A stretch of DNA of 54,050 nucleotides, counting the filler, from Ionaspis alba (lineage: Eukaryota): assembly GCA_964255285.1 (NCBI GenBank). It is 2 parts of 2 records of this genome, joined end to end, with 100 filler letters (N's around TTAATTAATTAA, not from the genome) between each part and the next. Parts side by side here need not be neighbours in the genome. Positions count along the whole stretch, not along the records: positions 1 to 27,025 come from CAXUUL010000140.1; 1 more part is not named here. One strand, 5' to 3'. The translations under genes and the position numbers were made by a program. The notes below the pieces were generated by a model, which was not told where the DNA came from, searched no databases, and was given only the letters and a program-made list of their open reading frames with translations. Shown in pieces: positions 4,451 through 51,956 of the stretch (positions are counted from its first letter, which is position 1; every line of letters begins with the position of its first letter).

Positions 4451-7035
4451 ATGGATGCCAGCACTCGAGAACAGCGGGCGATCGACTATGCTAATGAAGC
4501 AATCCAGCTTGTGTCTGAAGGCAAACGCGAGGTTCTTTGAATATCCTGCCACAGGCTTGGGATCTCTAGCTAATACGCGCGTGTTAGGAAGGGTTTGGGG
4601 CACTCCGGGAAGCAGCTTCGCTTGACCCAAACAATGATCAAGTCCGAGCAGCATTCAGCAAGCTTCAGATAGATGAATCGACCGACACCTTGCTCAAGCT
4701 TTGCAAAAGCCTTTTTGAATCCAAATCAGCATCCGCAGCCAAGGAAATTTCACGGTATCTAAGCAGCCATGGAAATCAAGTTTCTGCGGAGGTCGCAGAG
4801 AAGTGTATACAATTGGCAATCGAGGCCAAAGACATTTCGGACCTAGACGCCCGGGACGACGTAGTGACAAGTCTACTGCAAAACTGTCTACCAGCTCGAA
4901 GATGGCTGGCAAGACGACTTTCGGAGTCTGTTACCACAGTATTTGAAGAAGTCTTTGACATCGGCAACGCGGCAGCGACTGGTATGGCAATGGTGGTGAC
5001 CGACATCGCAGCTTGGCCATCGGAGTCACAGCGAGAGAGTTGTGAGAAGGACGTCTTCTTACTAGCCCTTGCTAAGCTCATGGAATCGGGACATGACTAC
5101 GATGGCAGAGCTATGAGAGAGATTGCCAGACTTTTATCTGTCGATGGCAAGAAGATTGAGCAACTTGTTGACGAGGAGTCATTCGACGCTATTCTTGCGG
5201 CTCTTGACGTTCGATGGCCAATTGACGTACGTAGCCAAGCTACCGTTGCAACGGCTAAGTTCTTCGAGTTTGCAGAAGACCGCGGCCGGACTTACTTGAC
5301 CAAATTTATCACGCAGCGGATTGGCCGGCAAACTAATGATGGCCTAATTGTGGCATTCTCTGCTGCCGCCGGCGTCTTTCCCATCGTTCCATCCATTGCC
5401 TCTGCCCTCTTTCTTACGGAAGGATTTGTGCCGTCGCTGGTACCAATGCTAGAAACAAGATCCAAATCTCGGAAAGTGGAACGTGCCGCTCTCGAGATGC
5501 TTAGTGCTGCTTGTATGGATGGTGGATGTCGCGAAGCAATAGCTAAACATTGCTTGAATTGGCTTCATAGCGTGATGAGCGCAGGAGAAGACGAGGCTAG
5601 AGGGCAAGCAGCGGTTGTCTGTGCCAAAATTAGCATTGTTACAGCCAAGTCGCCTGCTTCGACAGCGGGTGGTTCAGACCAGGACAGCAGGGTGCTAGTT
5701 GCCAGATTCAAAACTATGCTTTTCCAAAATAGCGAGACGCAGTTGAAGCATGCAGTTGAGGGTTTGGCTTTTGCTTCGACTCAGCCAAAGGTCAAAGAGG
5801 AAATCGTCAACGACTCTGACCTTCTCAAGAAACTTCTAGGTTTCGCTAGATATCGAGCAACATCAAATGCCAAAGCTTACCCAAAGTCACGCCCAGCTGC
5901 TTACCTAGAGTATCCTTTCCTCATACAATCTGCATTTGGCTTACTAACGATCTTTTATAATATCACTCGTTATGTTCCAAACCAGTCCGAGGAGCAGAAG
6001 CGAATGGCACAGCTTCAAGCATATGCCAACGCATCAAAGGATACGGGCCAGGTTGATCCGCTCGACGACGATAATCACGTTGAGAAGCGCTGCAGAGCTG
6101 TCTTTGAAGCTGATGCTCTGGAAGCCTTGAATGCCTTGTCTGAGGCAGACCGCGCCAAAGGCCTGTCGCCAACTTCTCTTAGCCTTTGCGCATCAATTAT
6201 CTTGTCGCTGTCTAGGACTTCATCATTACGAGGTAAAATGGTCCAACAAGGTGCACTTCCACTTCTACTCAAAGTCTATGAGAAAAATTCAAATACAGAA
6301 ATTGCGAACAGAGTCACTGCTGCGCATGCTATGGCCCGTCTGCTCATCTCGGCTGATCCGAACCTTGTCAGCGATAAAGTCGAGCCCACTGCCAAATCTA
6401 TTCTCTCTCTGATGGTCGACGAGGCTTCCTCCCATACTGATGGCCCTCGTGATCTCCTGCCAACTTTCGAAGGTCTTCTAGCCCTGACAAATCTGGTTTC
6501 GGAACCCCGATTCGGAGTGGGCCAGGACGTCGTCAAGGCGGCTTTTCCAAAGCTAGTGGACTTTCTCACCAGCTCCAACCAGTACATCCAGCGTGCATCA
6601 ACAGAACTGATCTGTAACCTGATGACCTGTCCGGAAGGTATCGAGAAATTCGCTGATGGCTCTAAAGCCGCTGCAAACAATATCCACATCTTGCTTGCAC
6701 TGGCGGATGTTGAGGACGTTGCAACTAGACGGGCGGCTAGCGGTGCTCTGGCTATGATTACCGAGTTTGAAGCTGTTGCCAAAGCCATCTTGGCTAGAGA
6801 CAGGGGAATGAAAATAGTTGTTCAACTCATGGAAGACGAAGATGCGGGTTGCGTTCACCGCGGGTTTGTCTGCGTGAGAAACTTGGTGATGATGGAAGGC
6901 AAGACCGGTCACGAATGCCGGGAAAGTCTGAAGGGTTTGGGGGCCCTCGACATGATGAGGGAGAAGCTACGAACCGCGAACGATGAGGCACTTTTGCAGT
7001 CTGCGGTGGAAATCTACAAGGCTCTCAACGTATGA
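4451..7035 (+). CDS. cro1: UCS-domain myosin chaperone CRO1/She4/Rng3 family (842 aa)
   Basis: Exon 1 4451-4531, intron 4532-4587, exon 2 4588-7035. ARM-like UCS motifs RGKMVQQGA, AHAMARLLISADP, FEGLLALTNL, QRASTELICNL, TRRAASGALA. Confidence 0.9.
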
Positions 7036-8520: not shown

Positions 8521-11041
8521 TGCAGTGTGACTCCAGAGGCCCAAGAGAGAAAAGTGTCAAAGTTCAGGGTATTAGGGGGCTGGGGGGATACCAGCCACCC
8601 CTGTGTATATAATACCTAGCTAGTCCCTCCATAGTTCACCAAGCTTTACCCCTCTATTTTCACAAAAAGCGCCACCGAGAATACCAGATCTGGCGTCAGG
8701 AAAGCCCGTTCGACCTGACAGATGTACATTGCATTCGGAAGGGTGCCAGAGGTTTATTTCTTTATACTTGGAGGAACTGCAGTCACTGGCTCTTCACGTC
8801 GACACGACATGTATGATCTGACGCAGCCAACCACGACGTCTTTCGGCAACATTCATGGACCTGGGTTGGCATGTAGCAAGTACATCGTGGGAGGTGTACC
8901 ACTGCACAGTCTGCACATATTCTGTACTCAGAAAATGCAGCAAATTCATGGATGACAGCGACGCCTATAACTGTTCGCACTTGTAGGACGTTTTTGATGA
9001 GCCCTCTAGCAATAGCAGCGACACCGGAAGTATGTACTTGAACAAATCAGTGGAAATTATAGCATAAAGAGGGAACTGCAGGTGATTGTGACATAGAGTA
9101 AGGATGCAATGGGCTCTACTCACATCTCTCCTTCATCCATGGTGTAATCATCTATTTCGCACATAACATGGGCACATAATAAACACACAACTATGGCTCA
9201 AGCCGAGCAAGCTTTGCAGCTGCTAGAATCTCCGTTTGGTATCCATGATATCGAAGAACTGTGCGAGGACGTGCCAGAAAATCGGGAGCCATTCTCGGTG
9301 CTTGATCAATTTGTCTTCTATTATTCCGCAGTACGTCTCTGCGGAAATCGAGCGTACTGAAAATGAGGGAGTCGTGTCCCGGAGTCAAAAGAGCCTTTCG
9401 ACCGCCCGGTTGACATTTCCTGGTCACGTTTCCGAAAAAGAAGTGGGCATGCCGGAGAGGCAGTATATTCCGAGTCTCATCGAGCTTGACGATTGAGAGC
9501 TGTGTCATTTGAGGGGTGGGTGGCCAACAAGTTCTAGCCAAAGAGTAGGTATGCCCATTTACAGATTGGCAGCCTCTTTGACCGGCAGTCTGGATTGTGA
9601 AGACGAAGTCAAGCCGGCTGATCGTCCGTCTGGTGCGATAGAGTGGATCACGAAGGCCACCCACCCGTCTCGTCAAAATTTGGTGACAGCGGTGCCCACC
9701 GTGATAGTATACGGGACAATATTACGAGATGATTGCAAAGCATAGCCTCCAAAGCTGACGAGGGAAGAACGGAGTCATAGGTGATGCGCCTCAGCAGATA
9801 CTAGACCAGGTAGATCTTCCATCAAATGGTCTGCAGGGCAAGTGGGAGGATGACGCGGCCATCGCATTGTTCCTAGATCAGGAAGCTGAACTCGTGAACC
9901 CAATGATGGGGGTGTTTCATCGACGATTACAGAAACCCCCACACTCCGAACATGCTGTTCCTAAATGTGTACCCGGGAAGGTGGTCTCATCAGGTCATCT
10001 TGCCAAGGTTCAACATTCATTGTCCCGTTGTAACGTGTGTTGGGGATCATCAGATAATGCACGGCGAAGCCTGACAGGGGCCATTTGTGGTAGATCCGCG
10101 GCAAAGGGAGTGCTAGCCGAGCAATTCGTCCATAAGTGCCAACAACCTGGTTCCCACGTTGAGATGAGCGACCGGGATTGAAAAAGACATTGTACATTAG
10201 TTCCTATTCTGGTTGCATCGGAGGAATATTGGCAGGGGTCGCTGCAAGCAGATCATGCATATAACATTGCGATTTTCCCCGTACCAAGCATTCGCAAGCA
10301 TCAGGCGACCAATGGGAGAGCTTACGGCACAGTGATGTGTGAGACTAGGCACTCCAAAAGACATTTCTCCGTCTCCAGTGCGCCGCCGTCGCCATCGATA
10401 TTCTCTGTAGTTGAGACATGCGTGACTTCACTTCTGCTCTTGTCGCCGATCGGGACACGCTGGGGTACAGAACTCCTGTCCCGCTAAGGGGCGAACAGCA
10501 TGACATAGGAACTGTCTGTATTGGTTACAGATACAAGAAATCCCAAGACACACAATACCAAGCGAGAATGAACAAGGTTTCGGTTACTTGAAATGTTTCT
10601 GGCATGCTCCGTCTCGTTTTCGAACGGATTGCTCGGGACTCCTAGTATTGCACGTTATGTTCTTTTAACTTAGCTGATCGCGCTTGCTGGCGTCTACTCG
10701 TCTATGTCTTGGCAGCGACCTCGCTTGCCAAGAACAGATTCAAGAGCAGGGTTCACACATGATCATGGCTTCCTTACGAAGCAGGAACAACTTGTACAAG
10801 AATAGAGAATCACATTACATCGACAAGAACTTATATTGATAGATCATATTATTTTGGATCCGACACTATGTACAACTGAGTCCTGACTCCTAACGTTCAT
10901 TAAACCCGGAAACGCGCCGCCACCAGAGACCGTGATACCCAGCATTAGTCGTTGAGACGTTTCATTCCATCATACCATAGACATTAGCCCCGTACTCCAC
11001 CTTAACACAAGATAATTGAGGTTCTGCACATCAGAAGCACT

Positions 11042-13000
11042 TCAAACAGGCTGAGTAGCGCTGCCTCCAGCATTGCTAGTCACCGTGACAGCTGTGACCT
11101 TTGCACCCTTAGCATTAAGAGTCAGAGAGAATCTCCCATTGCCAAGATTGTTCATTGCAGCAGGAGGGATGTTGATGTTAGCGGTGATCTTGAGGGTGAG
11201 AAGAGCAGAGAGATTGTTCGTGCTCGCCGTCACCGAGACACTGGTGGCACCCTGCTTGTTTTGTTGGGTAGCTGTAATGATTGTCACTATATCGGCGACT
11301 GGCGGAGTTGGAGTGGTAGCTGGTGCAGTGGTAGTTGGTGGGGGGACAGGAGTAGCTGGGCAAACGGTGGGAACTGGAGCGTTGGCTCCTGGCCATGGTG
11401 AGAGCTGGCCGACGATCGTAGGTGTAGTGGGAGGTGTTGCGAGGGGGTTGCCCGGAACGAAAGGTCCACCTCCTTTGGCAAGGAAGGGAATGACCTCGAA
11501 GAGGAGAGGAAACATTGGGTCGCCAAATGTGAGTAGTTCGGGGAAAACGAAGTCGAATATGGGCTGTATGAACTGCCCAGCTAGCACTCCACCTGCACCT
11601 GGCGCTGTACCCGTGCTGAGACGGAAACCGACTTGCCGTGTAGCCGGCGACACATCTGTCTTACCAAGACGGTAGACGGCTCTGCCTAAAGGAGCAGCTT
11701 GATTGGGTAGCATCTGAAGGAGAGGACGCTCGGTCACAGCTCCCGTGCATGGATCAACGTCCATTGCGAACCATTTGAGGATTGTACTTGGATCGGTAGT
11801 GAAAGCAACAGAACGAGTTTCAGCGATTTCGCCTCCTTGATTGGTGACGACGGCGTAGATGGCTGACTCGACAGTGACGTAGGCTGGTTTACTGCCCGGG
11901 GCAGTGTACGCGCCGATATTTGCATCGAGTGCATAGACAGCCATGGAGCCTCCGATGGTTGTCCCAGAAAACGTGATGTAGTCCCCTACTGCTAACGGCA
12001 TGGCAAGACGAGGGTCAGGGTCAGTTGGACCCACTGCTGTTGGATCCTTGAAGGTACTGTGATGTATGTCAGTCATTGAGCTCATTACGGGATGTGAAGA
12101 GCACCTACATCTTGTTCGATGCTCTATTTGTGGCAGGATCTATGGGGCGGTTCTTTGCTGGACAACCTGGGTCGGAAGCGTTACGAGGGATACACATTGG
12201 GAATCCAGTGGTGGTGTGGATTGACGGATTGTCCTTTGCAAACACTATTAGCGATGTCCTTTAGCGACAGAGAAGTTGGCATAATTACCGGGTCGAGGGT
12301 CCATAGCGGATTTGCGGTGTATGCGACACTATAGTCAAAGGTTTAGTCTGCCGATATGGTAATCAAAAGGTATGGTGACACTTACGCGAATCGCCCGGTT
12401 GGATCGTTCAAAAAGCAGTCGATGCCAGTTGTGCCAGCATCAGCGCCAAAGTTGCCCGTAACACGGAAGTGTCCGGTAGCGGGATCAATCGAATTGACAA
12501 AGCCTTGGAGAACACGGTTTGCCTGCTGTGCAATGTAGACCATGCCAGCGATGTGGTTGTTGTTGACCCTATTGCCAAGGACCTATGTTCAAGTTAGACC
12601 TATCACGTACGATTGAGTCAGCTTCGCTTACCGTAGCTTGCCAAGACACTCCGCCAAAGCCGGGAAGTTGAGGAGTTCCGGCGGCATCGAAAAGCTCCGC
12701 CCATGCAACCGTGATGGAGGGCAGCGTTGCCAGCAGATTCTTCGGGACAGTAATCTTGATTCCGTCTACGGTGATAGATCCCCCGGCTAGGGTTCCTCCT
12801 GCAGTATCCAACGTGAGGCTGTTAAATGCTTGAATTAGCAATGTGCCCATAGGCAGGTGGGACGGGATATCGCAGACATACCCATTAATGTCTCCAATAA
12901 TTTGGAATGGACTAGGGTCGTAAGGTGCATTCTGGGCGGAAGTAAAAGTTAAAAGGCATAGAAGTTTCGAGAGAAGGATGAAGAACGAAATGGACTTCAT
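11042..13000 (-). CDS. Secreted beta-rich protein of unknown function with Pro/Thr linker and C-terminal Ig-like domain (560 aa, 6 exons)
   Basis: Exons 13000-12882, 12818-12632, 12582-12386, 12328-12289, 12233-12109, 12056-11042; all introns GT..AG, total 1683 nt in frame. Signal peptide MKSISFFILLSKLLCLLTFTSA. Motifs GGSITVDGIKITVPKNLLATLP, LNDPTGRF, DPDNPSIHTTTGFPMCIPR, DPGCPAKNRP. Linker PPPTTTAPATTPTPP, then about 85 aa of alternating beta-strands ending VTVTSNAGGSATQPV. Confidence 0.85.
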
Positions 13001-14790
13001 CTTGGTGGCTCAAGGAGGTATGCTTGTGCTGTGAGACTTGGTAATCGGATGAGATATAGAAACATTGTAGAGAAGCGGCCAAGAGCGACATTCTTATACA
13101 TGAGGGTTCGTTCTGGTCTCTCGGTCCAGCTGAGGCGATGCTTGTCACCACTGTCACCACACGAAGAGGGCAAGTCGATCCTCGATGCATCTAGGAGGGC
13201 GACGGAGGTCCAAGACTCTGGTGGTGAAGGGCGGCGCCGCTCCAGATGCCGGACGGCGAGGGATGTGCTCGTAACCATTTTGTGGTTGTACGTAAACGAT
13301 GTGTAGGGTAGGAAACATGCGAACGAAACGTCCGAAAGCCGGCTGGTCAGGCTGACGTGTATTTGACAGCTGAAGGAGGCCACCATGTGGAATAATACAC
13401 ATGGCGTGGTTCAAGTGCAAGCGAAGGCGTTCCGGCTTTGCTCACACGGACACGAGAAGGAGTCCCGAAATGGAAATGGCATTCGAAGAGAGGGAGGGTT
13501 GGGGGCGCAGTAGAACGAAGGATGCAAGTGGTATCATTGGGTGACACGACGTTAGTATGAGGCACCAGCGGGCTGCGCTTGTGGGGAGCATCTGCTGCCG
13601 CTAGCAGAGTGGGATGTTCAGCCAGGGGTCGAGATCCTCCCTAGGGTGCCAGGCAGATCGACCGGATGAACTTTATTCTTCTCCTCCGACCCAGGCGACA
13701 ACATCTTCTCGGCTACTGCCTTGGCGCGTCTCTTGGCGCGTCTCTTGGCGTTTACCGGAAAGGCGGTAATAGGTGGTCCTTGCATACCAGCACTTCATCA
13801 CCCTTCCAACCCAACCTTCTTCCCACTCCATCGCCGCCTTGCAACCCTTCCAGTCCTCGTGTTGGCCATGCCTCCATCCTGCTTGCGCCATTGCTTAGTC
13901 TGCAGCATGATTTTCCTGTTGCAGCTCTGGGCTAGTCATGCTCGGGGAATTATCTCGTTGTCGGGAGCGAGGCTTGCCAGCGGTTGCCGGTTCCAGAACA
14001 GTGATGGATGGGGGAGCCCGTTCACTGACTTTTGGCCCGACGTACGCACCGAGCTCCTGCGCTGGCGATAGCCGCACTGAGGCGTCATTGAGTTCACGCG
14101 TGGAGAGTCTACCATCGCCAAGTATCAGACAACATCGACCGCAACGATGACAAGTACACTATGGCCGCCGAAAAAGACCCAAAGATTCGGTAACAAGGTT
14201 CGCTACTCAGCAGTAGCTGCGTCTTCGAGACTGCTGATGCTTCGTCCCTCGTTTGCCACGACGTTACCGTAGGCTCTAGAGGAGGAGGGGGCCTTCTGCT
14301 CCCAATTCCCTCACCCTGGTCGAGAGCTCTCGGATTTGCAACCATGCACCTCGGAATTGATCATCTGTTCGGATCCAGATCGAGTCATGTTTCTCACCAT
14401 GATGCTTTGATATGTTTGTATCCACAATTTCTGTACAACCCATGTTTCAGTCTCTCCTATTCGCTGTGTTTTTGACCAGCCGCGAGCATCCTTCGGCTGT
14501 AGACTTTCCTCATTCAATATACTGTATCATTCGGGAAGTGGAGAAGTGAACATCATGAGAATTGAGGAATGGATCTATTGTCCAGACCCTGGCAGGGGGC
14601 CAAGGACTGTCTATATAGAGTCGGTCAGATGTCCTCCTTATCTGATCTTCAGCAGACAACTCTCTCAATCTCGCTCTCAAGCCCTTGATTCTTCTTTACC
14701 AACCAGCGCGTTTGCAACACCGTTGTGGTAAACTGAATTGGCTTTTTGTCATTCGTTGCCTGTTCGTCCATCAGACGACCTACTGTCGTT
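13001..14790. promoter_or_regulatory. Bidirectional promoter with 9 PacC consensus sites (GCCARG)
   Basis: GCCARG on + strand at 13078, 13621, 13648, 14117, 14599. On - strand (CYTGGC) at 13720, 13732, 13744, 14588. Confidence 0.6.
13720..13750. repeat. 12-bp tandem repeat (CTTGGCGCGTCT) x about 2.6, each copy containing GCCAAG on the - strand
   Basis: cttggcgcgtct cttggcgcgtct cttggcg read directly. Confidence 0.9.
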
Positions 14791-16859
14791 ATGTCTCGTC
14801 TGGTACTTTCGTCCTTGTTGTACGCAACAGGCGTACTGGCTGGCATAAACCCATGGCTGTCTCCTGTGTGAGTTCTCTGTTTTGTGATTGTCTGATATTG
14901 GTCTCATGATCTTTAGATACCCCGACATCTTCGGACATCCGCTGCCAATAATGCCCAGCCTAGCACCAGCCACCACTTATACCAACACTACTAGTGGCAA
15001 AAGCATCGACTACTACGAGATCAATATTGAGGCATTCGAAGCCCAGACATACCCCAATCTTGGCACCACTAGCTATGTCGGGTACGTCGGCATTTCCTCT
15101 TGTGCTACGCAGCCACATAGCTAATAGTGTCTTACTTAGGTATAATGGCATTGCTCCCGGACCTACCCTTCACATGACGAAGGGTCGTGAGGCTGTCGTT
15201 CGCTTTATCAACAAATACGATCGACCTTCCTCGATTCATCTGCACGGATCGTATAGTCGAACCCCTTTTGACGGATGGGCGGAAGATGTCACCAATCCCG
15301 GACAATCCAAGGACTACTATTATCCCAACGCTCAACCTACTCGCACTCTCTGGTACCACGATCATGCCATCGGAATCACTGCTGTCAATGCCTACTTTGG
15401 ACAAGCCGGCTTCTATATCCTCCATGACCAAGCTGTCGAGGACAAGCTCCAGCTCCCTCAAGGCAAATACGACGTTCCATTGATGCTGGCAGCCAAACAG
15501 TTCCAGGCCAACGGCAAACTTGTGTCCCCTGAGCTCGAAAGAGTGTCTCTTTATGGAGATGTCATCACTGTAAGCGCATACTCATTTCTTGGTCATTACG
15601 TGGACATCTATCTTCACTTGCAATCCATTAAGCGCAGACTGCTAACACTTTTTCAGGTTAATGCTCAACCATGGCCATACCTCAAGGTTGAGCCCCGCAA
15701 GTACAAGTTCAGACTTTTGGATGCATCCATCAGTCGTACCTACAGCCTCTACTTGACTGCCGACAATAATCCCGCCACTCGACTGCCATTCACCGTTGTT
15801 GGTGCCGATGCAGGCTACCTCGACCATCCAGTGCCCACCAGCTCCTTGGTCATTGCGATGGCAGAGCGCTACGAGATCGTGATTGACTTTGCTCAGTTCA
15901 AAGGACAGAACCTGACTCTTGGCAATGAGAGAAACTTCCAGACCAACCCAGATTTCCCAGCTACTGACCGCGTATTGCGATTCGTTGTTGGCGACACGGT
16001 GACCGATCCTAGCAACAATGGTCCCCTCCCGGGTCATTTGTCTGATCTCGCCATCCCAGCTCAGCACCCCACTGTTGACCACGAATTTACCTTCGAGCGA
16101 AGCAATGGACAGTGGCTCATCAATGGTGTTGGTTTCGAGGATGTTGCCAATCGTATTCTTGCCAAGCCGAAGCGAGGACAAGTGGAGAGATGGCGATTGA
16201 TCAACAAATCTGGTGGATGGAGCCATCCTATTCATATTCATCTCATCGATTTCCAGGTCGTCTCAAGAGCTGGAGGACGAGGCTCTGTTATGCCATACGA
16301 AGCTGCAGCACTCAAGGATGTTGTTTACCTCGGTACGAACGAACAGGTCGAAGTCATCGCCAACTATGCACCGTGGGGTGGTATGTCATCCCTTTCCTCC
16401 TCTCTAATGTCTTTTACTAACTCGGAACCAGGAGTTTATATGTTCCATTGCCACAACTTAGTGCATGAGGATCATGATATGATGGGAGCCTTCAATGTCA
16501 GTTCGATTGACCTCAAGCCTTTCGGTTATGACGATAAGGTTATTCTTGAGGATCCCATGACTCCTTTGTTCCGTGCCAAACCCTACACTGGAACGGACCT
16601 GAATACCGTCAAGGGTGTGACGCTTCCAGCGTTTGACCAACTCAATGCATACCCAGATGCCAAGATTGTCGACGCGGCCTTAGCATCCTTCTACGCCGCA
16701 GCGGCCGCCACTCCAGCGCCGGCAGGAGCTGCCCCAGCGGCTGGCACTGCAACTACACTGGCTACCTCGGTCAAAGCATCGTCTACGAAGACCTCTACTG
16801 CGGCAGCTCCAACAGCAACAGTGGCCAGGAGAGGACGAAGAGCTGCTCGCATGGAGTAG
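14791..16859 (+). CDS. Secreted multicopper oxidase, bilirubin-oxidase/CotA-like (607 aa, 5 exons)
   Basis: Exons 14791-14867, 14917-15081, 15140-15569, 15657-16380, 16432-16859. Signal peptide MSRLVLSSLLYATGVLA. All four Cu-binding motifs present: IHLHG, LWYHDHA, GWSHPIHIHL, YMFHCHNLVHEDHDMM (Met axial ligand). FDGWAED and YYYPN are typical of fungal bilirubin oxidases. Ala/Thr-rich C-terminal tail. Confidence 0.93.
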
Positions 16860-17748
16860 GACGAGATCTACGAGTCATGACTCAGCAACGCGATGATGTT
16901 CATGCCCATGGGCAATGAGTTAACGATTTTGGAGGATACATCTGGGCATTAGGTGGCGAAGGATCCGGGGCAAGCATTGCTTGGCGTTCTACCGTCTACA
17001 CACTCCTTCTTTTGGTCGCGACCACTCTAGCATCTACTCTTTTTTTTTGGCTTGAAGATAGTCCGGTCTTGTAATAGTGTCCTGTTACCCATCTTCACCT
17101 TGAATGGAGACAAAGTCTTTCTTGACACGATCAAAGTGACTTCACCGACCGTGACCATTTTGACTGTGTTTTCGTTCTAGAGCTGAACAAGCCTCTTTTC
17201 CAAATCTTTGAGAACCTAATCTGCAATCCCCACAAAACTAGATAACGCTATTTGACGCTTCGGAAGACTCCTTTCGAACTCTAAATTGGCTAGTGGCCAT
17301 TGCAACTCGTTCGCACGTAAGAGCCGTCGTGTATCGATCAGATAACTTTACCGCGCTAACGTAATCAACAACACTATCGTGTCTCCCTTTCTGTGTACTG
17401 TAGACCATCGTATATCTGATCGACTATCTCCCGCTCTTCCTCCCCCCAGGACTAAACCAACCAGCTAGCTCAGCTCGCCACAAATCCCAGGGAAACCCTT
17501 CCAGCCCCGCCACAATGGGTACTAGCTTTTTGAGATTGGTGCATTCTGTTTAAGCTCACACCACTGATCATCGAGCCTCCCAGCCGCACATTCGACCTGC
17601 ATAGCCCCGGCACTCCAGACCCAAGACATCGCCACACCAAAGAACCGATTGGCCTTTGGCGCGCGGAGTGACGGATGCGCTTGCAAAAGGAAATGGCCCG
17701 AACGGGATGCCCAGCTCTAATCATAGATCTAGATCTGGTTAGGGCAAG

Positions 17749-18910
17749 ATGGGCTCGGATCTTCTGGAGCGAGGAAAGAAAGCTACAGTACAGCCGGGCG
17801 AGTCAGCGAAAACTGAATGGCTGACCATTTCACATCATGAATGTCTACGAGTCATCGTTGACGACAAGAGTGACATTGTTGTTTGACATGTCTTAGATCT
17901 TGTCTCAGATGGTTGGAACGCATCGCAGACAGATTGACACCGGCACTGCTCGGGAGTCTGCGACGGCGTGGTTACAGATGACTTCACGACGATATTATTG
18001 GAAAACTGGGCTGATGCGACCATTCCGAAAGCCGACAACTACGATGATTCCGAAGCCTGTAAGACGGCGAGCTGGATTGGGCACTGGCAAGCGAGCTGAA
18101 GGATTGAGTCGTTGGCCATCGTGTGCCCAGCTTTAAGACATATTGACGAGAACGACCGGCGCCGCAAACGTGGCAAATCTAGGCCAAGACAGTGGGATGA
18201 GGGGTACAACTGTGGCTTGACTGGCGAACGGCGATTTCCAAAAAGGCTTCAACCACGGAATGCATCCATTCAACGCCAGCCAGGCTGAACGACCAGAAGC
18301 TTGATTGTTGTTCTTGTTCTTCCACGTTTTCTCCCTGGAACAAACGATGGGATACCGGTCGGATGGTCAATGGTACGCTGTAATACACTCGAGAAGATGT
18401 GCTAGACGATGTTCCAGTACCACGTCTCTCTGCAGAATGCACTACAGTAGACTACACTACTACTCGTCCCACTCCACTGCTACCTGTGTCCACCACGTCG
18501 ATGGTTCCCTAACCAGCCTCTAGGACGATGAGAAAACATAAAGTCAAAACCAAGAAGGAACACCCAAAGTTCCTCCTAGTGACAGATACGACATCACCAC
18601 AGAAGGACGTTCGAAAATACCCCTCGCAAAAGATGCATCCAGAATGCAGGTTCCCCCCACATGTCCCGAGCCTCGAATAGCGACCACGAGGTTGCTACCT
18701 ACTGCGTCTACCAGGCACACCCACCATGCTGTAAGGGGCAAGATGTCGGATGTAACCCCGGGTGCCCATTCGCCAAATACGCCCATTCCCGGCAGAACGC
18801 AACAGCCTCGTGCGAAAAACGACCTGCGGCTGACAGCAGGCCGGATGACTTGGCGCTCGTACAGCTGTCAGCGCAATTTCGCGAATTGGGATTGGACTTC
18901 GTGTTGGTAA
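17749..18910 (+). pseudogene. Possible decayed RING/IBR (RBR)-type gene remnant
   Basis: A long frame from 17749 has only sparse stops. Cys-rich relics LDCCSCSSTF..., VPRLSAECT and KRCIQNAGSPHMSR (compare RING2 K.CP.C...IQK..GC.HM.C) lie in different frames. Confidence 0.25.
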
Positions 18911-19215
18911 GTCTGACCGTATCGATTCGGGGCTGGAATGACCTATGGATGGTCGATGATTGGTAGGCTGTGATGGTACGGACTGTTTCGGGGCATCGCA
19001 GTCAGACGACTGCGCCTGTGAGGATTACCACCACTTTTTTTTTTGTTTGGGTGCTTGGAAGTCTGGATTCAGAAAGCTTCGTGCTGGAAACGGCCTTTCG
19101 ACTCGAGGCTGGCCCTCACCAGTTACAGCACTACCAGTCCGTTCAGATCCTCCCTTCAGAAATACATATATCGCAAACATGCCTTTCCGATCTGTTCCCC
19201 ATCAACTCTGCAACC

Positions 19216-20419
19216 ATGTCTCCACTCACCCTCCTTCTCGCTGCCCTCGCCGTCTTCCTCCTCCCGCTCCTCCCCTCCGCCATCCNNNNNNNNNNCCGCC
19301 ATCCCCCTCCCCACCCCTCAAAGCAACGACGGTTCCGACCAACCAGTCCTAATCGGTGACCTCGGTCCTCCCTTCGGACCGACCACTGCAACCGGCATGT
19401 CTGTCACCAACATCCTCCTCGGCAGCGAATCCGGCCAATCCAACGTCACAGCTCCGAAACCCTCCAAAGCCGACTGTGCCAAAAACCCCTGCTGCGTCTG
19501 GTACGACGTCTCCCGCGACCTGACGGACATGTTCCGCGGGCCGACAGGCCGCTGCAACAACAACGCCCGCGCCGCCATCCGCCTCGGTTTCCACGACGCG
19601 GGAACCTGGTCCCGGAGTCTGGCGAAAGCAGGGCAGGACTTCGGCGGCGCCGACGGCTCCATCATTCTCTTCAACGAGATCGCCCGGCCCGAGAACCGCG
19701 GCCTCGAGGACATCATCATTAAGATGCGCAAACTCGGTCTCAAATGGAACGTCGGCTTTGCCGACCTCATCCAATTCGCCGCCCAGCACGCAACCGTCAC
19801 TTGTCCCCTCGGTCCGCGCGTTCGCGTCTTCGTCGGCCGCAAAGATGCTACCCAAGCCGCGCCTGATAATCTTCTCCCCGACGTCCATGCCCCTGCTGCC
19901 GATCTCATCAAGCTCTTCCGCGACAAGACGATCGAGCCGCATGATCTCACGGCGCTGTTGGGCGCGCACTCGACCAGCAAGCAGTTCTTTGTCGACCAGA
20001 CGCAGGCCAAGGCGTCCCAGGATACGACGCCGGGGGTTTGGGATGTTAGGTTTTATAATGAGACGTTGCAGGCCGACGGGCCGAAGAAGGTGTTCAAGTT
20101 CGATAGCGATGTGAAGTTGTCGACGTATCCGGATACGCAGCTGGAGTGGCATATGTTTGTGGGGAATCAGGCGCATTGGAATGATGTGAGTATTTTTGTT
20201 CATTCATTTTTCTTCTTCTTCTTCTTCTTCTTCTCTTCTTGTGGTTTGGCTGTGAATGGCTTGGCTGACTTTGTTTTGTGGTAGGATTATGCGAGGTCTT
20301 ATACGCGGTTGAGTCTGCTGGGTGTCAATAATATTAATAGTCTTACGGAGTGCACTGTTGCGCTGCCGATGCCGCGGCCTTTCTTTCCGGGCAAGGACCT
20401 GCCGGGATATGAAGAATAG
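19216..20419 (+). CDS. Secreted class II (AA2) heme peroxidase, ascomycete generic type; spans a 10-N gap
   Basis: Signal peptide MSPLTLLLAALAVFLLPLLPSA, then N-gap 19286-19295 with an apparent frameshift. Distal RAAIRLGFHDA, GGADGS, RPENRGL, CPLGP, GRKD, proximal LLGAHS, DTTPGVWD. Intron 20186-20284. Last exon DYARSYTRLSLLGV..LTECT..LP. Confidence 0.88.
20209..20233 (+). repeat. (TTC)n microsatellite in the peroxidase intron
   Basis: About 8 consecutive TTC units. Confidence 0.85.
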
Positions 20420-20430
20420 ATGTTTTGATG

Positions 20431-20640
20431 AAAGCGATGCATTGGATGGCGCTTTGGAGGTTTTATTCGAAAATTAATCGGAGCANNNNNNNNNNNNNNN
20501 NNNNNNNNNNNNNNNNNNNNNNNNNNNNNNNNNNNNNNNNNNNNNNNNNNNNNNNNNNNNNNNNNNNNNNNNNNNNNNNNNNNNNAAAGCGATGCATTGG
20601 ATGGCGCTTTGGAGGTTTTATTCGAAAATTAATCGGAGCA
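20431..20640. other. 100-N assembly gap with a 55-bp sequence duplicated on both flanks (probable contig overlap)
   Basis: aaagcgatgcattggatggcgc...aattaatcggagca occurs at 20431-20485 and again at 20586-20640, either side of Ns 20486-20585. Confidence 0.9.
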
Positions 20641-27025: not shown

Positions 27026-27125
27026 NNNNNNNNNNNNNNNNNNNNNNNNNNNNNNNNNNNNNNNNNNNNTTAATTAATTAANNNNNNNNNNNNNNNNNNN
27101 NNNNNNNNNNNNNNNNNNNNNNNNN
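27026..27125. other. Scaffold gap with artificial six-frame stop linker TTAATTAATTAA
   Basis: N44-TTAATTAATTAA(27070-27081)-N44, the typical form of a contig-joining spacer. Confidence 0.9.
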
Positions 27126-35763: not shown

Positions 35764-38700
35764 TCATCGCTGCAGATCCCTCACAGAAGGAATGCGGTTC
35801 AACTCCGGGTAAGGTAGCGGCAAACCCTTTTGTTCTTCGAGCGGGCGCCAAATCCCCAAATCGTCCACGCTGTCCAAGCCTTCGAATTCCTCCCTCCCAT
35901 ACTCATCTCCAATATCCTCCCTCCTAAGAGCACCACCCTCCTGCTCAACCCCATTCATCCTCTCCGACCCTTCACCACTCCCCCTCCCACTTCTCAATCC
36001 TCTCTCCTTTAACACCCCTTCCCAAGCCTTCCACCTAGCCCTTGCATCTTCCAGCCTCACAGGCTCGAACTCTCCAAACACCACTTCCCCGCCCTCTCCG
36101 AACGGTGCGATGCCCAAGCCGCCTTCCTCTTCAACGGCAACGCCCGGACCAGAACCGTGTCTGGACATTGGCCTGGATGCCGATGCCGATAGAGACATGG
36201 CTGCAGGTGGGAAATGCTCTGTTCTGTTGGGAAAGAAATGGAAGGATGCGGAGCCTTGATGCTGACCTCTAACGCCTGGATATACGCTCGCGTTAGCTGC
36301 CCATTCACCTGTGCCCTCGAGCAGGTCTCGACTACTCGGACCAGCTTCGTAGCTTCCGACCTCGACCGGATGTGAGTAAGCTGTTTTGGGCGATTTGCGA
36401 AGTGGGGAGCCATCCGGTAATCGAGACCGTGGCGAGGCATTGTCGGGCCCGATCGCGGAGATGTAAGGAGACCCTGGTGGATATTGTGGAAAGGCGGGTT
36501 CGGTGGCTGTGCCGGAAAAGTTTGAGTTGTGGGAATGATCTCGGGAAAGGGGCTGCGAGTAGTAGCCTGAGGGAAAGGAGGACGAGCCCGGGTTGAAGGG
36601 TGTGGAGGGTACGAAGTTACGTTTGATGGATCCCGCGGAGGTGGGAGTAGCGTAGCCCTGGGTGATCATGATGTTGGGCTCATAGGGGAGAGGGCGAGGA
36701 TAGGAACCTGTAAGTTGGGCGGGGGAATAGTGGGGCTCGTCGGGTTCGTCGTGGGACTGATAGTCAGAGGGTGGAAAGTTTGGCGACGACCGATTTTGTG
36801 AGAAGGCTTGCTCAGAGGCTTCGACAGAATTCGTACTATTGTGACGGGATCTTGAAGATGCTATGTAGGGTTTTGAGAGCGAGGAGAGAACAAACCGGCC
36901 CTTGTAAGATGACTCTTGTGCGTTACTCGATCGACTTAGCACATTTTCACGTGTCCGCCCTCGCTCTCCATCAGACGATGGTGGCGATGGGGGAATCTGT
37001 TTCGATGTTGATGTTTCCCTTGCAGAAGACGGAGATCGAGTATGCTGGCCGGCTGCTGCCTTAGCATAAGTCGCTTGAATCGGCGTGGCAGTTACAGGAC
37101 GACTCGAGGGGCTTCGTGACCAGCTCAAGCCTCCACCTCGAGACGGAGGTGGACTTGCACGGTGGATGGTGGTCAATGAACTCACTGCTTCAGAGGGACC
37201 CGTCAAATTGCCTTGCGACTCTCCAGGTCGGGGGACCACAGACCCTATTGCATGGCCGCGATCGACCTTTACTCTGGCTGGTACTCGGCGGAAGCTGCTG
37301 CCAGGAAGAACGGGTCTTCTCGGCTTCCTGGCTGGAGGAACTACTTTCCAGCCTCCACCTTCGCTCCCTGTGCTCACAGCACGTGGGCGCAACGTTGAAT
37401 CGGACAGACCCTTTTCCATAGGGTAGGAACCCTGTCCGTCGTTGTCGTAGAAAATGGGGAAACGGGAGTGGGGGCTGTGATCTAAGATTCTCGGACCGAC
37501 CATCGGGGAAGTCGTCCCAATACTTCTAGGAGAATCAATGGAAGGCTTGTCTAGCTCTATGCCATATTGGTTTTGGTTGTTCAAAGGCAATGGCGTCGGG
37601 CGATAACCAGGAGTTCTGATATCTGGAGCCGAGTGTCCCGAACTCGAACTGCTGCTGGTCCTGTCAAAGACTGAAACCTGGAATTCAGCTCGGTCAACAC
37701 TCTCTTGTGACGAGCCGGGCTCCCGAGCGTGAATTTCGTTGTTTATGACCGCCAGGACCGGGTCGAGCTCTTCTCGGATAGGTGTCAAATCCTGGTTTTT
37801 GCTCTCATATGCGAGCGAATGCTCACGTAGCCTTGCTCCGTGCACAAGGTATTCTCGGTAGTCAGAGACTCGACCGCGTTCCGATCGTCCCTTGATCCTG
37901 AGGTCGGCCTCACGGAATGAATGACAGAATAATTTGACAGCATAAGTCAACCATATTGGAAGCATCTTTAGAGAATTGAGATTGTCGCGGCAAAATCCTT
38001 GGACGACGCTATGCATTTTGAGCATGTCAATCGGCTCCGGCTCTACCAGACTGTCTCGACTGCTTGACATCGAGTCCTTGTCGTCTGGCTCGTTGCGTTC
38101 GATCAGTGCATGGCGCATGAGGATCGCAAATGTGATATTAAGGTCCGGCTTCTCTCCGTTTTCGCTCGATCTGACTTCAACCCCTTCATATCGAAGAGTA
38201 CGGATCCCGAGATGGACGAGTTCTACTGGCAGATGTGGTCCATAGAAGCAAAGAATGTTGATGAGATTGTGTGCTTCCATATGGTCACTAGCCCTCAAAT
38301 CGTCCATAATCTTGCGGTACGTAGATCCAAGTTTTGGGTCTTCCGAGAAGGATTTGAGGTTATATCTCTCCAGGGGCTCATGCGTATACGCAATGCGATG
38401 GCTGATGGCATTGATGGCCATCGGGAGACAGTCAACCTTCTTGACCAGTTCTGTCGCGCTCTTAATCTGTGCATCTCGGGGTTTCGGTATCGGGATTTCC
38501 TGGAAGAGTAGTTTACGAGCATCCTCCTCCTTCAGCGGCGGCACTTTGATGGCGTATGGTCGAAGAAGTCTTTGTAAATTTTCCAGTCTCTTCGCCCTTG
38601 AGACATAAATTAGACTGCAATTCTTGCTATCTGGCACGAACTTTTGTAGCTCTGTGATATCATCGTCATTCTCTACCGTAACACCATCGAATACCAGTAG

Positions 38701-40740
38701 CCAGTCGCGTCGACCTTCGAACCACTCTTTGACGATTTCGACGTATGATGTTTGCTCGCCTGAGCCATCACCTGATGTGCGCAACGCGGGTGAGTCCTTC
38801 GCCACAGCCTTCTGAGCGATTTGCCAATAGTCCTTATATAGTTCATCTTTGAGACGAGCGTTTATCCAGAAGACACCACCCTTGAATTTTGCCCGATTTC
38901 TGTACACATACTCTCGACTTAAGTGCGACTTCCCGCTACCAGCTTGGCCGTGAATCAGCGTGCACGCGGTGCCAACTTTTCGTCTCTTGTCAAACAGTTT
39001 GCGATCTAATAGCTGCAGTTCCTTTTCCATGCCCACGAAGAAAGTGTTTGGGCGAAATCCAGCTGGAACAATGAAGAATGGCTCGGGTGGCTTTTGGGCG
39101 AAGTCACGGACATCGATGGTAGACTTTTGAGATGGAATTTGCAATAGATTCGTGGAGTCACGAAGATCGTGAATTGAACTACCTAAGAAAACGACAGAAA
39201 TCAGCCACTAAGCGCATAGCGACGAGACACCGAAAACTCTGCGAACAAGGATATACATGATTCCTCTAAGGACCAGAGAAAGCACCATGGCAATACATAT
39301 GCATAGAAATAACCGACATGCACACCGAGACAAAGGAGTCCCGTTGCAAAATTTATTGTCCATACGACCTCGGGACCATCTCAACTTCTTTCATCTTGTT
39401 GGGGTCTTCGAATTCCTCAACTTCCCACTCGATTTGAGACGGAGGCCTCCTCGGATCCGCTGTAGGCAAAGCCATTTGTGTCTTACCGGGAGTTTTCTCG
39501 AACGAGCTTGCCGTGTCCGAAGGTGGAGTCTGAATTATGCTACCTAGGAACGTCAGTTGGGTTTGGGCTGAGTACGATGCATGACAGATATAGCGTACCG
39601 GTAGGGCCAACGAGTTCCTCCGCCTGATGCAATCTCTGCGCTTTTCGATCTGCTTTCTCTGAATTCCACCGAGTCTGCATCATTTCCGGCGCAGCGGCCG
39701 AATACCGCGCGATTGCATCTACGACGACATCGAAGCCAGGAGAACTTTCGCTCTCGAATTTGCACATGTGCGAATGATCAGCCTGGATGCCTGCTCGCTC
39801 TACATCGTACATGGTAGGTGCGGCAGATTCTTCCTCGACGACCTGTCCACCGATTAGCCGGTCGCAACCCAAACCCAACGACGCGGACTTACAAATCGCA
39901 TTGTTCCTTTCAGGTCTGTAGGTTTCGCTTCATGGAAGAAGAAGATGTGGAATTTTGTCATGATCTCAGCAAACTCGCGATGGATCACCTGCAAGGTTTC
40001 ACTATTACTTTTCAAAGCCTCTAGAAGCTGCGACTGTGTGTCGAGGAGCTTCTTTGGTACCACGGCGCTGAACAGATGTTCGAGGTACGTGCCCCACTGT
40101 CCAAGGTCCGATCCCATGTGAGGCGTCCCCATAAACAGTATTCCGTATGTTGAGACGAAGATGGATCGCAGGTGCTCGGTGTTGGAACCTCTGATTGCAG
40201 CGGACGTGATCAAAGCCCTCTTGATTATTAGGCCTCCGAGTGAGTGGCCAACGAACACGATTGGTCTCTCGGTAGCTTTTCGGATCTGTACATTCCATAG
40301 ATTAGCACCTCATGATACACCCTTCCCTAGGCACTTGCAGGTTGAATTTAGGAACAGCATACCCTTCTATTTGCGAACAGCTCTGCAACAAGTTTTTCAG
40401 CATGGTTGTGAATCTTGTCCTTGGTTACCCCGTCATTCTTTCTAAACGAGGTAACGTCCGCGTCGTAACCCCAAACCAAGACCCGCACTTTCTCCTCTTC
40501 AATGAACTGTGGAAGTAGTTGAGCTGGCCAGAACACATTGCTCTTCTCGCTGGTCCAGGTGTTGTGGGGGTTTCCGTTCAACCCGTGGACAAAAACGAGG
40601 TCAACGAGGACAGAGCTAGGAGGTTCAGGACGATAGACTTCGGTGAAGCCATAGCGTGTGACAGTGGGAGTCGGGGACGAGGAAGCCTGATACTGTCAGC
40701 TAACGGGACCACTCCACAACTTGGAGTCGGCACATACCAT
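35764..40740 (-). CDS. Alpha/beta-hydrolase (LipA/SesB-like) plus NB-ARC NLR-like protein (1479 aa, 6 exons)
   Basis: Exons 40740-40738 (ATG only), 40686-40363, 40285-39893, 39842-39599, 39543-39487, 39182-35764. VDLVFVHGLNG, GHSLGG nucleophile, GTPHMGS, ADHSHMCKF. Walker A GQAGSGKS, Walker B WLLVFDGV, CLPMAI, KMHSVVQ. Ser/Pro-rich disordered tail. Confidence 0.88.
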
Positions 40741-50281: not shown

Positions 50282-51956
50282 ATGCCTGCCCTCCTAGACG
50301 ACCCACTCGCTCGCCCTATCCCTCCACCAGCCATTCCCCTCTCCCCAGACACCAACCTCCCACGGACCATCACCCCTCGACGTGTTACTCTCCGCGACCG
50401 CATCACCCTCGCAACACTCCTACCCTTCTCCTCCCCCTCCCAGGTTCCGCCTTCCTTACTAACCTACCTGTCTGACCAACTCAACCGCGAGATCGAAAAA
50501 GGCGACACCTACCCCATGGTCGAGCCTCTGAGCGTGGAAGCCTTTGGCGCGTACTGGTTTGGTGCGTTCGGCGCCGTTATGGTCCTAGGCGAGGTAGGTG
50601 GTGAGCATGGAGATGTCCAAGGGGAGCTTCATCGATTCGGGCAGCCGACGAGCCAGGGGACGTTGAGGATGGGAATCGGACCGCAGAGTGGTAGGCCGGA
50701 AGCGTGGGGATTGGCGGATGAAGGCGTGGAGTGGGAGAAGGTTTGTCTGGGGAGCTTTTACGTCAAGCCGAATTATCCCGGTAGGTCGAGCCATGTTTGT
50801 AATGGTGGGTTCTTGGTCACGGATGCTGCAAGGAACAAGGGCGTCGGGCGGTTGATGGGAGAGGGCTATCTTGAATGGGCGCCGAGACTCGTAAGTCCGC
50901 CATAGCTGATCCACATTATAAGCTAGAGATTTCGAAGCGCTGACAAAGTTCGATCGAAAGGGATATACCTACTCGATCTTCAATCTGGTCTACGAAACCA
51001 ATACCGCCTCTCTCCGCATCTGGGACGCCCTCGGCTTCAAGCGCATCGGCCGTGTCAAAGGCGCCGGAGCTCTTCGCTCGTATCCCGACACTCTTATCGA
51101 CGCATTGATCTATGGTCGTGACCTGGGCCCAGACGGCGAAGATTTTGTGTCCGAAGAGCGCTTCGACAAAATCCGCTTCTACCTCAAGCACGGCAAATAT
51201 CCAAATGGCGCTGATCGAGCCGAAAAAAGCAGACTCAGAAGTGCTGCAACGCACTACAAGCTGCTACCGGCAGAGAATGTCGAAGGCGAGGGTGGCGAAA
51301 GGCTGATGCTTAAAGACAAGGAAGTGGTAGCTGACCCGCAACGTCAGTATGAGATCGCACGCGTGGTACACGTCAATGGCCATGGTGGGATCAATAAGAC
51401 CACAGCAACGATCGCGGAAAAATTCCACTGGGTGCGCATTAAGGAGACTGTGAGTCTGGTAATCAAGAATTGTGCGGATTGCAAAGATGCTGCAAAAATC
51501 TTTGTCGGTGGAAAAGGAGAGAGCAAGAAGGCGGAGAGAGATGATCCAAACCGTGAGATTGAACGCCTGGTCAGGTTCGACGAGGCTGCTGCAATGGTGG
51601 GCAGCGGTAGTGTTGTGGGTAATGCGAAGGGAGGAAAGAGAGGTGGTAGGAGAAGTCCTGCTGAAGCACCTAGAGGACCTGCGCCCGTGGCAGCTATGAG
51701 TGCGGCATCGTATGGCGACATGCCCTTGGATCCGCTTATCATGCAGGATGTGCAGCATCGGGTTCCTGCATATCAGGATGGAAATTTGCATTCGCATCAG
51801 CCGCATGGGAATGCCAACGGCACCGGCTTGGACCACTATGCTATGGACATGGATATGACGAATGGACAAGATGGCATGGATGTCGATACTGAACAGGGAG
51901 ATATGCAACAGCAACTTCTGGACGCCGATTTCGGTTCTCACGGTAGTGCTGCTTGA
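50282..51956 (+). CDS. SPT10: GNAT acetyltransferase plus H2C2 zinc finger, Spt10-like histone gene activator (534 aa)
   Basis: Exons 50282-50890 and 50961-51956. GDTYPM, CLGSFYVKPNYPGRSSHVCNGGF, RNKGVGRLM, GYTYSIFNLVYETN. H2C2 finger H..GHGGINKT...NCADC. Confidence 0.88.

Follow-up and report, generated by a model that had tools for sequence, protein, structure and literature searches.

The window analysed here, a stretch of 54,050 nucleotides (filler included) of Ionaspis alba (assembly GCA_964255285.1), is made of two parts of two records joined end to end, with positions 1 to 27,025 belonging to CAXUUL010000140.1. It was found to contain a cluster of three genes for predicted secreted proteins, namely a multicopper oxidase (MCO), a protein of a family without a name that is encoded head to head with the MCO (hereafter the partner), and a class II haem peroxidase. 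The gene structure, the enzyme families, the conservation of the partner family and its non-random linkage, in two domains of life, to genes of haem peroxidases and MCOs were established. The cluster is best read as a conserved module of extracellular oxidation that is inherited together, and whose partner protein would be a non-catalytic accessory or scaffold, and a probability of about 0.5 was given to this reading.

Gene structure of the cluster

The gene models were based on homology and splice signals only, and the signal peptides of the partner and the MCO were judged by eye. The cluster was found to contain the following features, given in positions of the window.

11042..13000, minus strand: partner gene, for a 560-amino-acid secreted beta-rich protein of a family without a name (ATG at 13000, stop at 11044-11042)
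13000-12882, 12818-12632, 12582-12386, 12328-12289, 12233-12109 and 12056-11045, minus strand: the six partner exons, placed by sequence and splice sites together with tblastn with the Cryomyces and Hymenoscyphus homologues
11045..11299, minus strand: Ig-like beta-sandwich domain at the C-terminus of the partner, formed by its last 85 amino acids or so
roughly 11300-11370, minus strand: Pro/Thr-rich linker of the partner, preceding the Ig-like domain
13001..14790, no strand: spacer of 1.79 kb between the divergent start codons, presumed shared promoter region
14791..16859, plus strand: MCO gene of the bilirubin oxidase (BOD) / CueO-PhsA type (ATG at 14791, stop at 16857-16859)
19216..20419, plus strand: class II haem peroxidase gene (PF00141), lying 2,356 bp (2.36 kb) downstream from the MCO stop

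The partner was found to contain a signal peptide, followed by a core of about 430 amino acids made of beta domains, the Pro/Thr linker and the C-terminal Ig-like domain. A 63-nucleotide in-frame gap of the gene (12881-12819) was missing from all the homologues and was therefore called an intron. The partner and the MCO both begin with a signal-peptide-like N-terminus, and the distance from start to start is 1791 bp (14791 - 13000). The sequence-only reading, which had described an intact gene for a 560-amino-acid partner and an intact MCO gene diverging from a 1.79-kb spacer, was borne out in its positions, and the motifs it had quoted (TGFPMCIPR, DPGCPAKNRP, LNDPTGRF and VTVTS..GGSAT) were all found in the translation of the open reading frame (ORF). 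The pair may be co-expressed from the shared spacer.

The MCO gene was found to be split by four introns or more, of which two are in frame, with exon ranges placed by tblastn. The translation matched Cu-oxidase_3 (75.9 bits), Cu-oxidase (28.4 bits) and Cu-oxidase_2 (81.2 bits) of Pfam, all over the cut-off, and PhsA/CueO models of NCBIfam under the cut-off. The four copper-ligand motifs (HxHG, HxH, HxxHxH and HCHxxxHxxxxM) were read in it as HLHG, HDH, HPIHIH and HCHNLVHEDHDMM, so that the earlier statement that all copper ligands are present holds, and the motif columns were invariant across an alignment of 54 MCO sequences. The MCO was 67-70% identical to proteins of Helotiales (Hymenoscyphus, Halenospora and Glarea) that are named bilirubin oxidase or cupredoxin in their sources, and the homologues at 47-70% identity bear the source names 'bilirubin oxidase', 'cupredoxin' and 'oxidase cueO precursor'. 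By these matches the window MCO is a three-domain multicopper oxidase of the bilirubin oxidase / CueO-PhsA type. Judged by the best matches, the source would be an ascomycete and probably a member of Leotiomycetes. A Ser/Thr/Ala-rich C-terminal tail of about 50 amino acids was also observed in the MCOs examined of the partner-linked subclade described below (window 16680-16856; homologues P0254 and P0375), and this tail and the Pro/Thr linker of the partner may, as judged by eye, be heavily O-glycosylated or wall-associated.

The class II peroxidase, the third member of the cluster, was absent from the sequence-only reading. The ORF at 19022-20284 was found to match PF00141 of Pfam (92.4 bits). 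From its start at 19216 the gene codes first for a signal peptide; one intron lies near 20190-20284 and the end at 20419, and the pro-region is not fully readable at a run of 10 N (19286-19295) right after the part coding for the signal peptide. The best solved relatives were Coprinopsis peroxidase (CiP; 1ly8, E 1.1e-37) and the manganese peroxidase (MnP) MnP4 of Pleurotus (4bm1, E 4.6e-36), followed by lignin peroxidase (LiP) and versatile peroxidase (VP), with ascorbate and cytochrome c peroxidases at E 4e-11 or weaker. The window peroxidase thus joins CiP, MnP, VP and LiP in class II by Pfam and by its solved relatives, and the distal Arg, Phe and His and the proximal His were found to be kept.

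Linkage of the cluster in fungi

The metagenome scan, with a query headed by a fungal sequence, gave 57 loci, 11 of which were judged fungal and 46 bacterial. The MCO was found head to head with the partner in two of the three fungal loci of at least 8 kb, with a spacer of about 1.4 kb in L001 and about 3.0 kb in L039. MCO and partner with consecutive accessions were found in Coleophoma cylindrospora (RDW64720 and RDW64721) and C. crateriformis (RDW68551 and RDW68550), and with consecutive ids in four records of Cryomyces antarcticus (LTR16_000866/867, LTR16_000475/474, LTR60_000288/289 and KAL2358047/8); two further contigs, of 18,319 and 17,491 bp, were found to carry both genes.

All three of the long fungal contigs, namely the window, L001 and L039, were found to carry a peroxidase near the partner/MCO pair. 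In L039 (53% identity) the homologue of the window peroxidase comes right behind the partner, and in L001 (42% identity) it was found beyond the MCO, was confirmed by Pfam and also matched Peroxidase_ext. Out of 14 window ORFs compared with L001, L039 and L009, only the peroxidase ORF gave a match and the 13 others gave none; no other gene of the window is syntenic with L001 or L039, which marks the cluster as specific and not as a piece of a conserved region. The peroxidase adjoins the partner in Polyplosphaeria fusca (KAF2735726 and KAF2735727), and the two are four locus tags apart (IFR05_003729 and IFR05_003733) on one 89-kb contig of Cadophora sp. M221; no linked peroxidase was found for Coleophoma and Cryomyces among the matches listed. 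L001 was also found to contain, between the MCO and the peroxidase, an ORF on the minus strand (4721-5305) like HODM_asu, the haem-dependent oxidative N-demethylase alpha subunit (184 bits), and no counterpart of it was found in the flanks in the window.

In the MCO tree of 124 rows (FastTree), all eight of the partner-linked fungal MCOs fell in one subclade of 20 rows (support 83), nested in a clade of 27 rows (support 100). Cryomyces clustered with Helotiales in the MCO tree as well as in that of the partner, as is expected if the pair moves as a unit, and this fits a co-transfer or co-retention of the MCO/partner pair. The partner family was found to be patchy in fungi. In the partner tree of 51 rows (IQ-TREE), one branch split the fungi from the bacteria (98 in the SH-aLRT branch test), and no bacterial sister clade was found there that would name a bacterial donor of the fungal family. 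The fungal part of the partner tree departed from the species tree, with Mycena, Flagelloscypha and Infundibulicybe placed among ascomycetes and Cryomyces with Cadophora, a topology suggestive of transfer from one fungal lineage to another, or of old paralogy followed by loss.

Linkage of the partner in bacteria

The scan of species genomes, with an alignment query of 10 rows, gave 166 relatives, and 77 loci were kept from the best 80 of them. The neighbours were called by tblastn with preset thresholds within 10 kb or less on each side. An MCO was found at 42 of the 77 loci, 27 being MnxG-like and 15 three-domain (BOD/CueO-like), with the MnxG share inflated and the list of taxa biased by a query taken from an MnxG-linked locus. 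A MauG/MbnH-like di-haem peroxidase was found at 35 of the 77 loci, SCO1 at 32 and a YVTN-type beta-propeller at 19, and 62 of the loci contained an MCO or a di-haem peroxidase. Many of the contigs are short and related genomes share arrangements; among the loci with full flanks, an MCO was found at 18 of 28. The independent metagenome set contained an MCO at 9 of its 46 bacterial loci and at 7 of the 15 loci of at least 8 kb.

Five bacterial genomes of 3.9-5.1 Mb were found to contain 2-9 MCO-domain matches and 1-4 partner genes, and the chance of an MCO in a random 20-kb stretch is about 1-4% by our own arithmetic on these five genomes. The sequence-only reading had proposed that similar proteins lie next to MCO genes in bacteria; by the neighbourhood tabulation, partner homologues are linked to MCO genes far beyond chance at these 77 loci, and also in fungi.

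The giant MCOs of L042, L045 and L051 were found to score 945, 846 and 867 bits, respectively, on the MnxG model of NCBIfam (NF041487), for which the equivalog cut-off is 3100, so the giant neighbours are MnxG-like only by this score. The NCBIfam matches of the di-haem neighbours to MbnH (151 bits) and MauG (85 bits) were likewise under the cut-off. The typical gene order in Nitrospira was found to be partner, MnxG-like MCO, beta-propeller and (SCO1), and that of Methylobacter psychrophilus was MCO, SCO1/cytochrome c, MCO, SCO1, partner and di-haem peroxidase. The Terriglobia order was MCO, SCO1, di-haem peroxidase, partner and partner, and Leptothrix discophora contained a di-haem peroxidase followed by the partner, with no MCO near. 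Three-domain MCOs were found to adjoin the partner in methanotrophs and Acidobacteriota.

In the partner tree the MnxG-linked genes formed one clade (support 95-99), and the contexts with a three-domain MCO or a peroxidase recurred across several clades. The MCO linkage was thus found in several deep partner clades, with two MCO architectures.

The loci showed further features beside the oxidases. A sigma-54 activator gene was found to adjoin the partner at 7 of the 46 bacterial metagenome loci, several of which are near-identical copies, and two or three partner paralogues were found at many bacterial loci, often on either side of the di-haem peroxidase gene. In L044, a 749-amino-acid ORF between the peroxidase and the MCO was found to be a member of the partner family. 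The mnxG and mcoA genes of Pseudomonas putida are described as dependent on sigma-54 and MnxR in the relevant text of a review (PMC13689576), a control that the activators beside the partner bring to mind. The positions are as follows.

L028:3036-4928, L029:3427-5394, L031:3-782, L032:4418-6379, L033:1345-3306, L043:2033-3994 and L044:4695-6107: sigma-54 activator next to the partner
L044:6299-12772, L011:772-7197, L077:7233-11929, and L121, L105, L111 and L122: loci with several partner paralogues

Conservation of the partner family

An exhaustive search of representatives at E up to 0.001 gave 406 clusters for the partner family, and at 1e-10 it gave 222. The last exon of the partner matched 136 proteins at E up to 1e-3, the holders being many paralogues in Mycena, several Helotiales, Cryomyces, Polyplosphaeria, Flagelloscypha, Infundibulicybe and Colletotrichum. 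Bacterial-looking homologues in the same search, at 31-35% identity, were found to carry the TGYP(V/M)CIP motif, and the C-terminal domain of the fungal partner aligned with that of the bacterial members L018 and L015. The bacterial GYP(M/V)CIP proteins that the sequence-only reading had described were in this way confirmed by homologue search and alignment, with some of them sharing the C-terminal domain. One homologue, P0079 of Drepanopeziza brunnea, had lost the conserved NDP...CIP region over about 60 residues (alignment columns 200-300) and looks frameshifted or mis-modelled.

None of the four partner exon translations gave a match in Pfam. Seven of eight full-length homologues gave none either, the sole match being K319L-like_PKD in Infundibulicybe, and no model of NCBIfam matched the core of the family. 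No paper was found that names the partner family or describes the three-gene fungal cluster, in a literature search with supplements outside its scope, and none was found that contains any of the six locus tags looked up.

In the alignment of 70 partner sequences, 74 positions, mostly Gly and Pro, were found to be kept by 80% or more of the sequences. The polar positions conserved at this level were seven Asp, six Asn, four Arg, two Gln, one Glu, one Tyr and one Thr, together with three Cys. No column of the alignment reached 50% His, and the best Trp column (PWPG) reached 79%. A classical copper site in the partner is unlikely because no column reaches 50% His, and the conserved polar set, rich in Asp and Asn and without His, would fit the binding of a hard cation or a glycan over a copper site. 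By its sequence the partner is without a recognisable cofactor or catalytic motif.

These columns bear on the possibility that the partner itself undergoes maturation into a metallo- or quinoprotein that binds or processes metal, for example in copper acquisition or handling. The bacterial MauG/MbnH-like enzyme would then oxidise a residue of the partner and SCO1 would load copper, and in fungi the MCO and/or the peroxidase would take over. MopE, CorA and MbnP, a group of copper proteins that are either secreted or periplasmic and that owe their maturation to MauG-like partners, are characterised by conserved His ligands and a modified Trp. The bacterial partner, secreted or periplasmic, beta-rich and encoded beside a di-haem MauG-like gene (35 of 77 loci) that often comes with SCO1, has a likeness to operons of the mtoX type. 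The mtoX-SCO1-mauG operon, which encodes a copper-dependent methanethiol oxidase with a proposed protein-derived cofactor according to the operon description in PMC5739008, gives a precedent. Many of the bacterial holders are methanotrophs and nitrifiers going by the titles of their records, but the list of holders is biased by the query. The partner differs from proteins of the mtoX and MopE type, however, in that its His, Met and Trp columns fall short of the conservation required for a copper site, and in that an MCO is usually present in the cluster too, an adjoining MCO being the simpler explanation of SCO1. The fungal clusters were found to contain a class II peroxidase in place of a MauG-like enzyme, with no MauG-like neighbour. 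A profile search of the partner against all PDB sequences, MopE entries included, gave no match at E up to 1, and no entry of the MopE, CorA or MbnP type was found among the rows shown in the fold searches with the partner models. A matured metal protein of this kind was judged unlikely.

Predicted structure of the partner

The AlphaFold2 model of the Hymenoscyphus homologue was found to have a mean predicted local distance difference test score (pLDDT) of 92.0 and a predicted template modelling score (pTM) of 0.77, and that of a bacterial core-only member a pLDDT of 91.6 and a pTM of 0.89. In the fold search with the full model the match was confined to the C-terminal Ig-like domain: residues 468-551 of the homologue model matched Ig/FN3/PKD-type domains at Z 8.0-8.8, with a root-mean-square deviation of 2.0-2.8 over 73-81 aligned residues. 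The core-only model matched OB-fold nucleic-acid binders at residues of about 22-126 and 127-288 (best Z 5.3) and a beta-sandwich at about 296-441 (Z up to 3.7), all below the noise level of the tool. The predicted build of the partner is a pair of OB-like barrels with a beta-sandwich and an Ig-like domain on a tether. A named fold for the core was dropped, since the best Z values fall below the noise level stated for the tool.

Foldseek on both partner models gave generic beta-sandwich rows only, at a template modelling (TM) score of 0.17 or less, and the weak top rows were adhesins and S-layer proteins. The ESM Atlas search gave clusters named 'hypothetical protein'. One ascomycete cluster in it (TM 0.70/0.79) bore the automatic name 'Beta-1,3-glucanase N-terminal domain-containing protein', and this name was kept as a lead only, the aligned part being without a family.

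The glucanase name, together with positions of Asp, Thr and Gly that are invariant over 67-70 sequences from both domains and with the compact and confident core of the bacterial model, would be expected of a new enzyme that supplies the oxidases or consumes what they make, for example by freeing substrate from a polymer or by acting on the oxidised product. No enzyme family or fold matched the partner, however, its best Z belonged to nucleic-acid binders and lay within noise, and a cofactor motif is lacking, so that an enzymatic partner was considered very unlikely.

The partner may instead be an ordinary surface or matrix protein, such as an adhesin, a sheath protein or a wall component, with its proximity to oxidases due to shared regulation or an old arrangement. 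The Ig-like C-terminal domain with the Pro/Thr linker and the adhesin and S-layer rows of Foldseek point in this direction. Among 25 long bacterial representatives, extra domains of the PKD, Big, cadherin-like or HYR kind were found in 15, and a domain of an oxidase or a peroxidase in none; faint matches to DUF5666 (E about 0.007-0.01) were found in two of the 25. A large subclade free of oxidases, the tandem expansion at L009 and the many Mycena paralogues, all taken up below, also agree with it. The linkage recurs, however, across several deep clades and in fungi as well as bacteria, and it involves two MCO architectures and two unrelated families of haem peroxidase; the absence of any other syntenic gene between the window and L001 or L039 speaks against an old arrangement of a whole region. 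A mere surface protein was held to be quite unlikely.

Comparison with known systems

The loci were found to resemble the Mnx system of Bacillus in that proteins other than an MCO are encoded beside the MCO. The Mn-oxidising MCO MnxG of Bacillus needs the accessory proteins MnxE and MnxF, small subunits in a hexameric ring, as described in the section on Bacillus in PMC13689576. The partner, with 560 amino acids, several domains and an Ig-like tail, is set apart from the small MnxE and MnxF by this description.

The bacterial partner loci were also found to be like the operon around mnxG in P. putida GB-1, with an MnxG-like MCO, a YVTN/YncE-like beta-propeller and SCO1 in the same order. The GB-1 operon contains mnxG, a YVTN beta-propeller, two SCO1/SenC, SBP/cytochrome c and SurA genes according to PMC11409713 (Table 4) and PMC8218464. 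Homologues of mnxG are reported in Nitrospira, Nitrosomonas and Methylomonadaceae, with homology predicting function poorly, in the text seen of a preprint (bioRxiv 10.1101/2024.12.25.630300).

In fungi, MCOs of the BOD type were proposed as Mn(II) oxidases, in Acremonium KR21-2 and with candidates in Stagonospora and Paraconiothyrium sporulosum, and no partner protein is mentioned in the passages on them (PMC7902709). The window MCO is of the same enzyme type as these candidates, and the cupredoxin of Paraphaeosphaeria sporulosa was found to be 52% identical to it, but to fall in the other large clade of the MCO tree, outside the partner-linked subclade. No description of a class II peroxidase clustered with a BOD-type MCO and a partner was found in the literature searched.

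Proposed role of the module

In the favoured reading, the MCO, the partner and the class II peroxidase would make up a conserved cluster, inherited together, of secreted proteins that serve oxidation outside the cell. The MCO would reduce O2 and the peroxidase would take H2O2 as the oxidant, both being ordinary and apparently intact enzymes. The partner would act on the cell surface alongside the oxidase encoded next to it, whichever that is, either by holding or presenting a common substrate or product or by anchoring the enzymes, and would in this way be coupled to them physically or functionally. The most plausible substrate would be a polymer open to oxidation or a hard metal cation, Mn(II) for example. 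The support for Mn(II) is circumstantial and comes from the MnxG-like neighbours in bacteria.

Several findings weigh against this module. The query for the bacterial scan, as noted, favoured MnxG-linked loci. The P. putida GB-1 mnxG operon, as tabulated in PMC11409713, contains no gene of the partner family, and the single partner gene of L. discophora was found at least 190 kb from the nearest MCO-domain match on its contig. A subclade of 39 rows, mostly Acidobacteriota/Holophagaceae, was found to contain 33 rows without an oxidase in the available flanks, many of which are short. The fungal locus L009 (31-7642) was found to contain three tandem partner copies, one of them partial at the contig end, and its 14.4 kb gave neither an MCO nor a peroxidase; this array and the many paralogues of Mycena indicate that the partner family can expand independently of oxidases. 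The closest MCO orthologues of Hymenoscyphus albidus, Halenospora varia and two Cadophora species lie off the contig of the listed partner, and Glarea, Rhynchosporium and Diplocarpon were found to contain MCOs of the subclade with no partner among the 120 matches listed. No 9-mer or longer word was common to the three fungal spacers, compared with 0.41 expected, and known copper, stress or CreA elements were not consistently present in them. In the peroxidase, the GECGEEVHES of MnP4 (4bm1) aligned with GRCNNNARAA, so that two Glu, which we take to be those of the Mn site by role and numbering, are replaced by Asn and Ala; by these two positions the window peroxidase resembles a generic class II peroxidase and not a manganese peroxidase.

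The pairing of MCO and partner in fungi is accordingly frequent and not obligatory. Of the conserved module of an MCO and an accessory protein that the sequence-only reading had proposed, the conserved family and the linkage beyond chance have stood; the MCO orthologues without an adjacent partner, the oxidase-free subclade and L009 speak against an obligate pair.

Other features of the window

The flanks of the pair, which had been described earlier as decayed DNA, were found to be merely without long ORFs (9722-11041 and 16860-19021), with no relic homology, and the right flank (16860-19021) runs into the intact class II peroxidase gene. No signal like repeat-induced point mutation was found in the flanks, the TpA/ApT ratio being 0.64 (9722-11041) and 0.67 (16860-19021) against 0.64 for the window. 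Runs of N were found at 19286-19295 (10), 20486-20585 (100), and 27026-27069 and 27082-27125 (44 each), the window being a gapped scaffold. The other genes of the window were as follows.

35764-39207, minus strand: ORF of 1147 amino acids with NB-ARC/AAA_16 matches, NLR-like
50922-51956, plus strand: ORF with integrase zinc-finger (zf-H2C2) matches, probably a retroelement relic
remaining genes, housekeeping-type: kinase, ribosomal S5, UNC45, DEAH helicase, SDR, DUF6829, QPRTase and Sec7 GEF (guanine nucleotide exchange factor)

Implications for extracellular oxidation

The question of which proteins besides the oxidase are required for biological Mn(II) oxidation is posed as open in PMC13689576, a 2026 review on Pseudomonas whose text asks whether the MCOs of other Mn oxidisers need accessory proteins. 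The natural roles of fungal BOD-type MCOs and of ascomycete class II peroxidases are likewise unsettled. The partner family offers a concrete candidate, being a family of 406 clusters without a name, modelled with high confidence and found beside oxidase genes in bacteria and fungi. If the idea holds, it would alter the calling of candidate Mn-oxidation genes in metagenomes, where mnxG homology alone predicts poorly, as stated in the preprint text (bioRxiv 10.1101/2024.12.25.630300).

A wider reading, which is doubtful at present, would take the partner family as a missing common component of extracellular oxidation of Mn(II) or other metals, from nitrifiers and methanotrophs to fungi, and the fungal trio as a laterally mobile 'oxidation cassette'. 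The partner at the surface would then bind Mn(II)/Mn(III) or nucleate the oxide, and would serve the MnxG-like MCO, the three-domain MCO, the di-haem peroxidase or the class II peroxidase, whichever is at hand, and the cassette would have moved between fungal classes.

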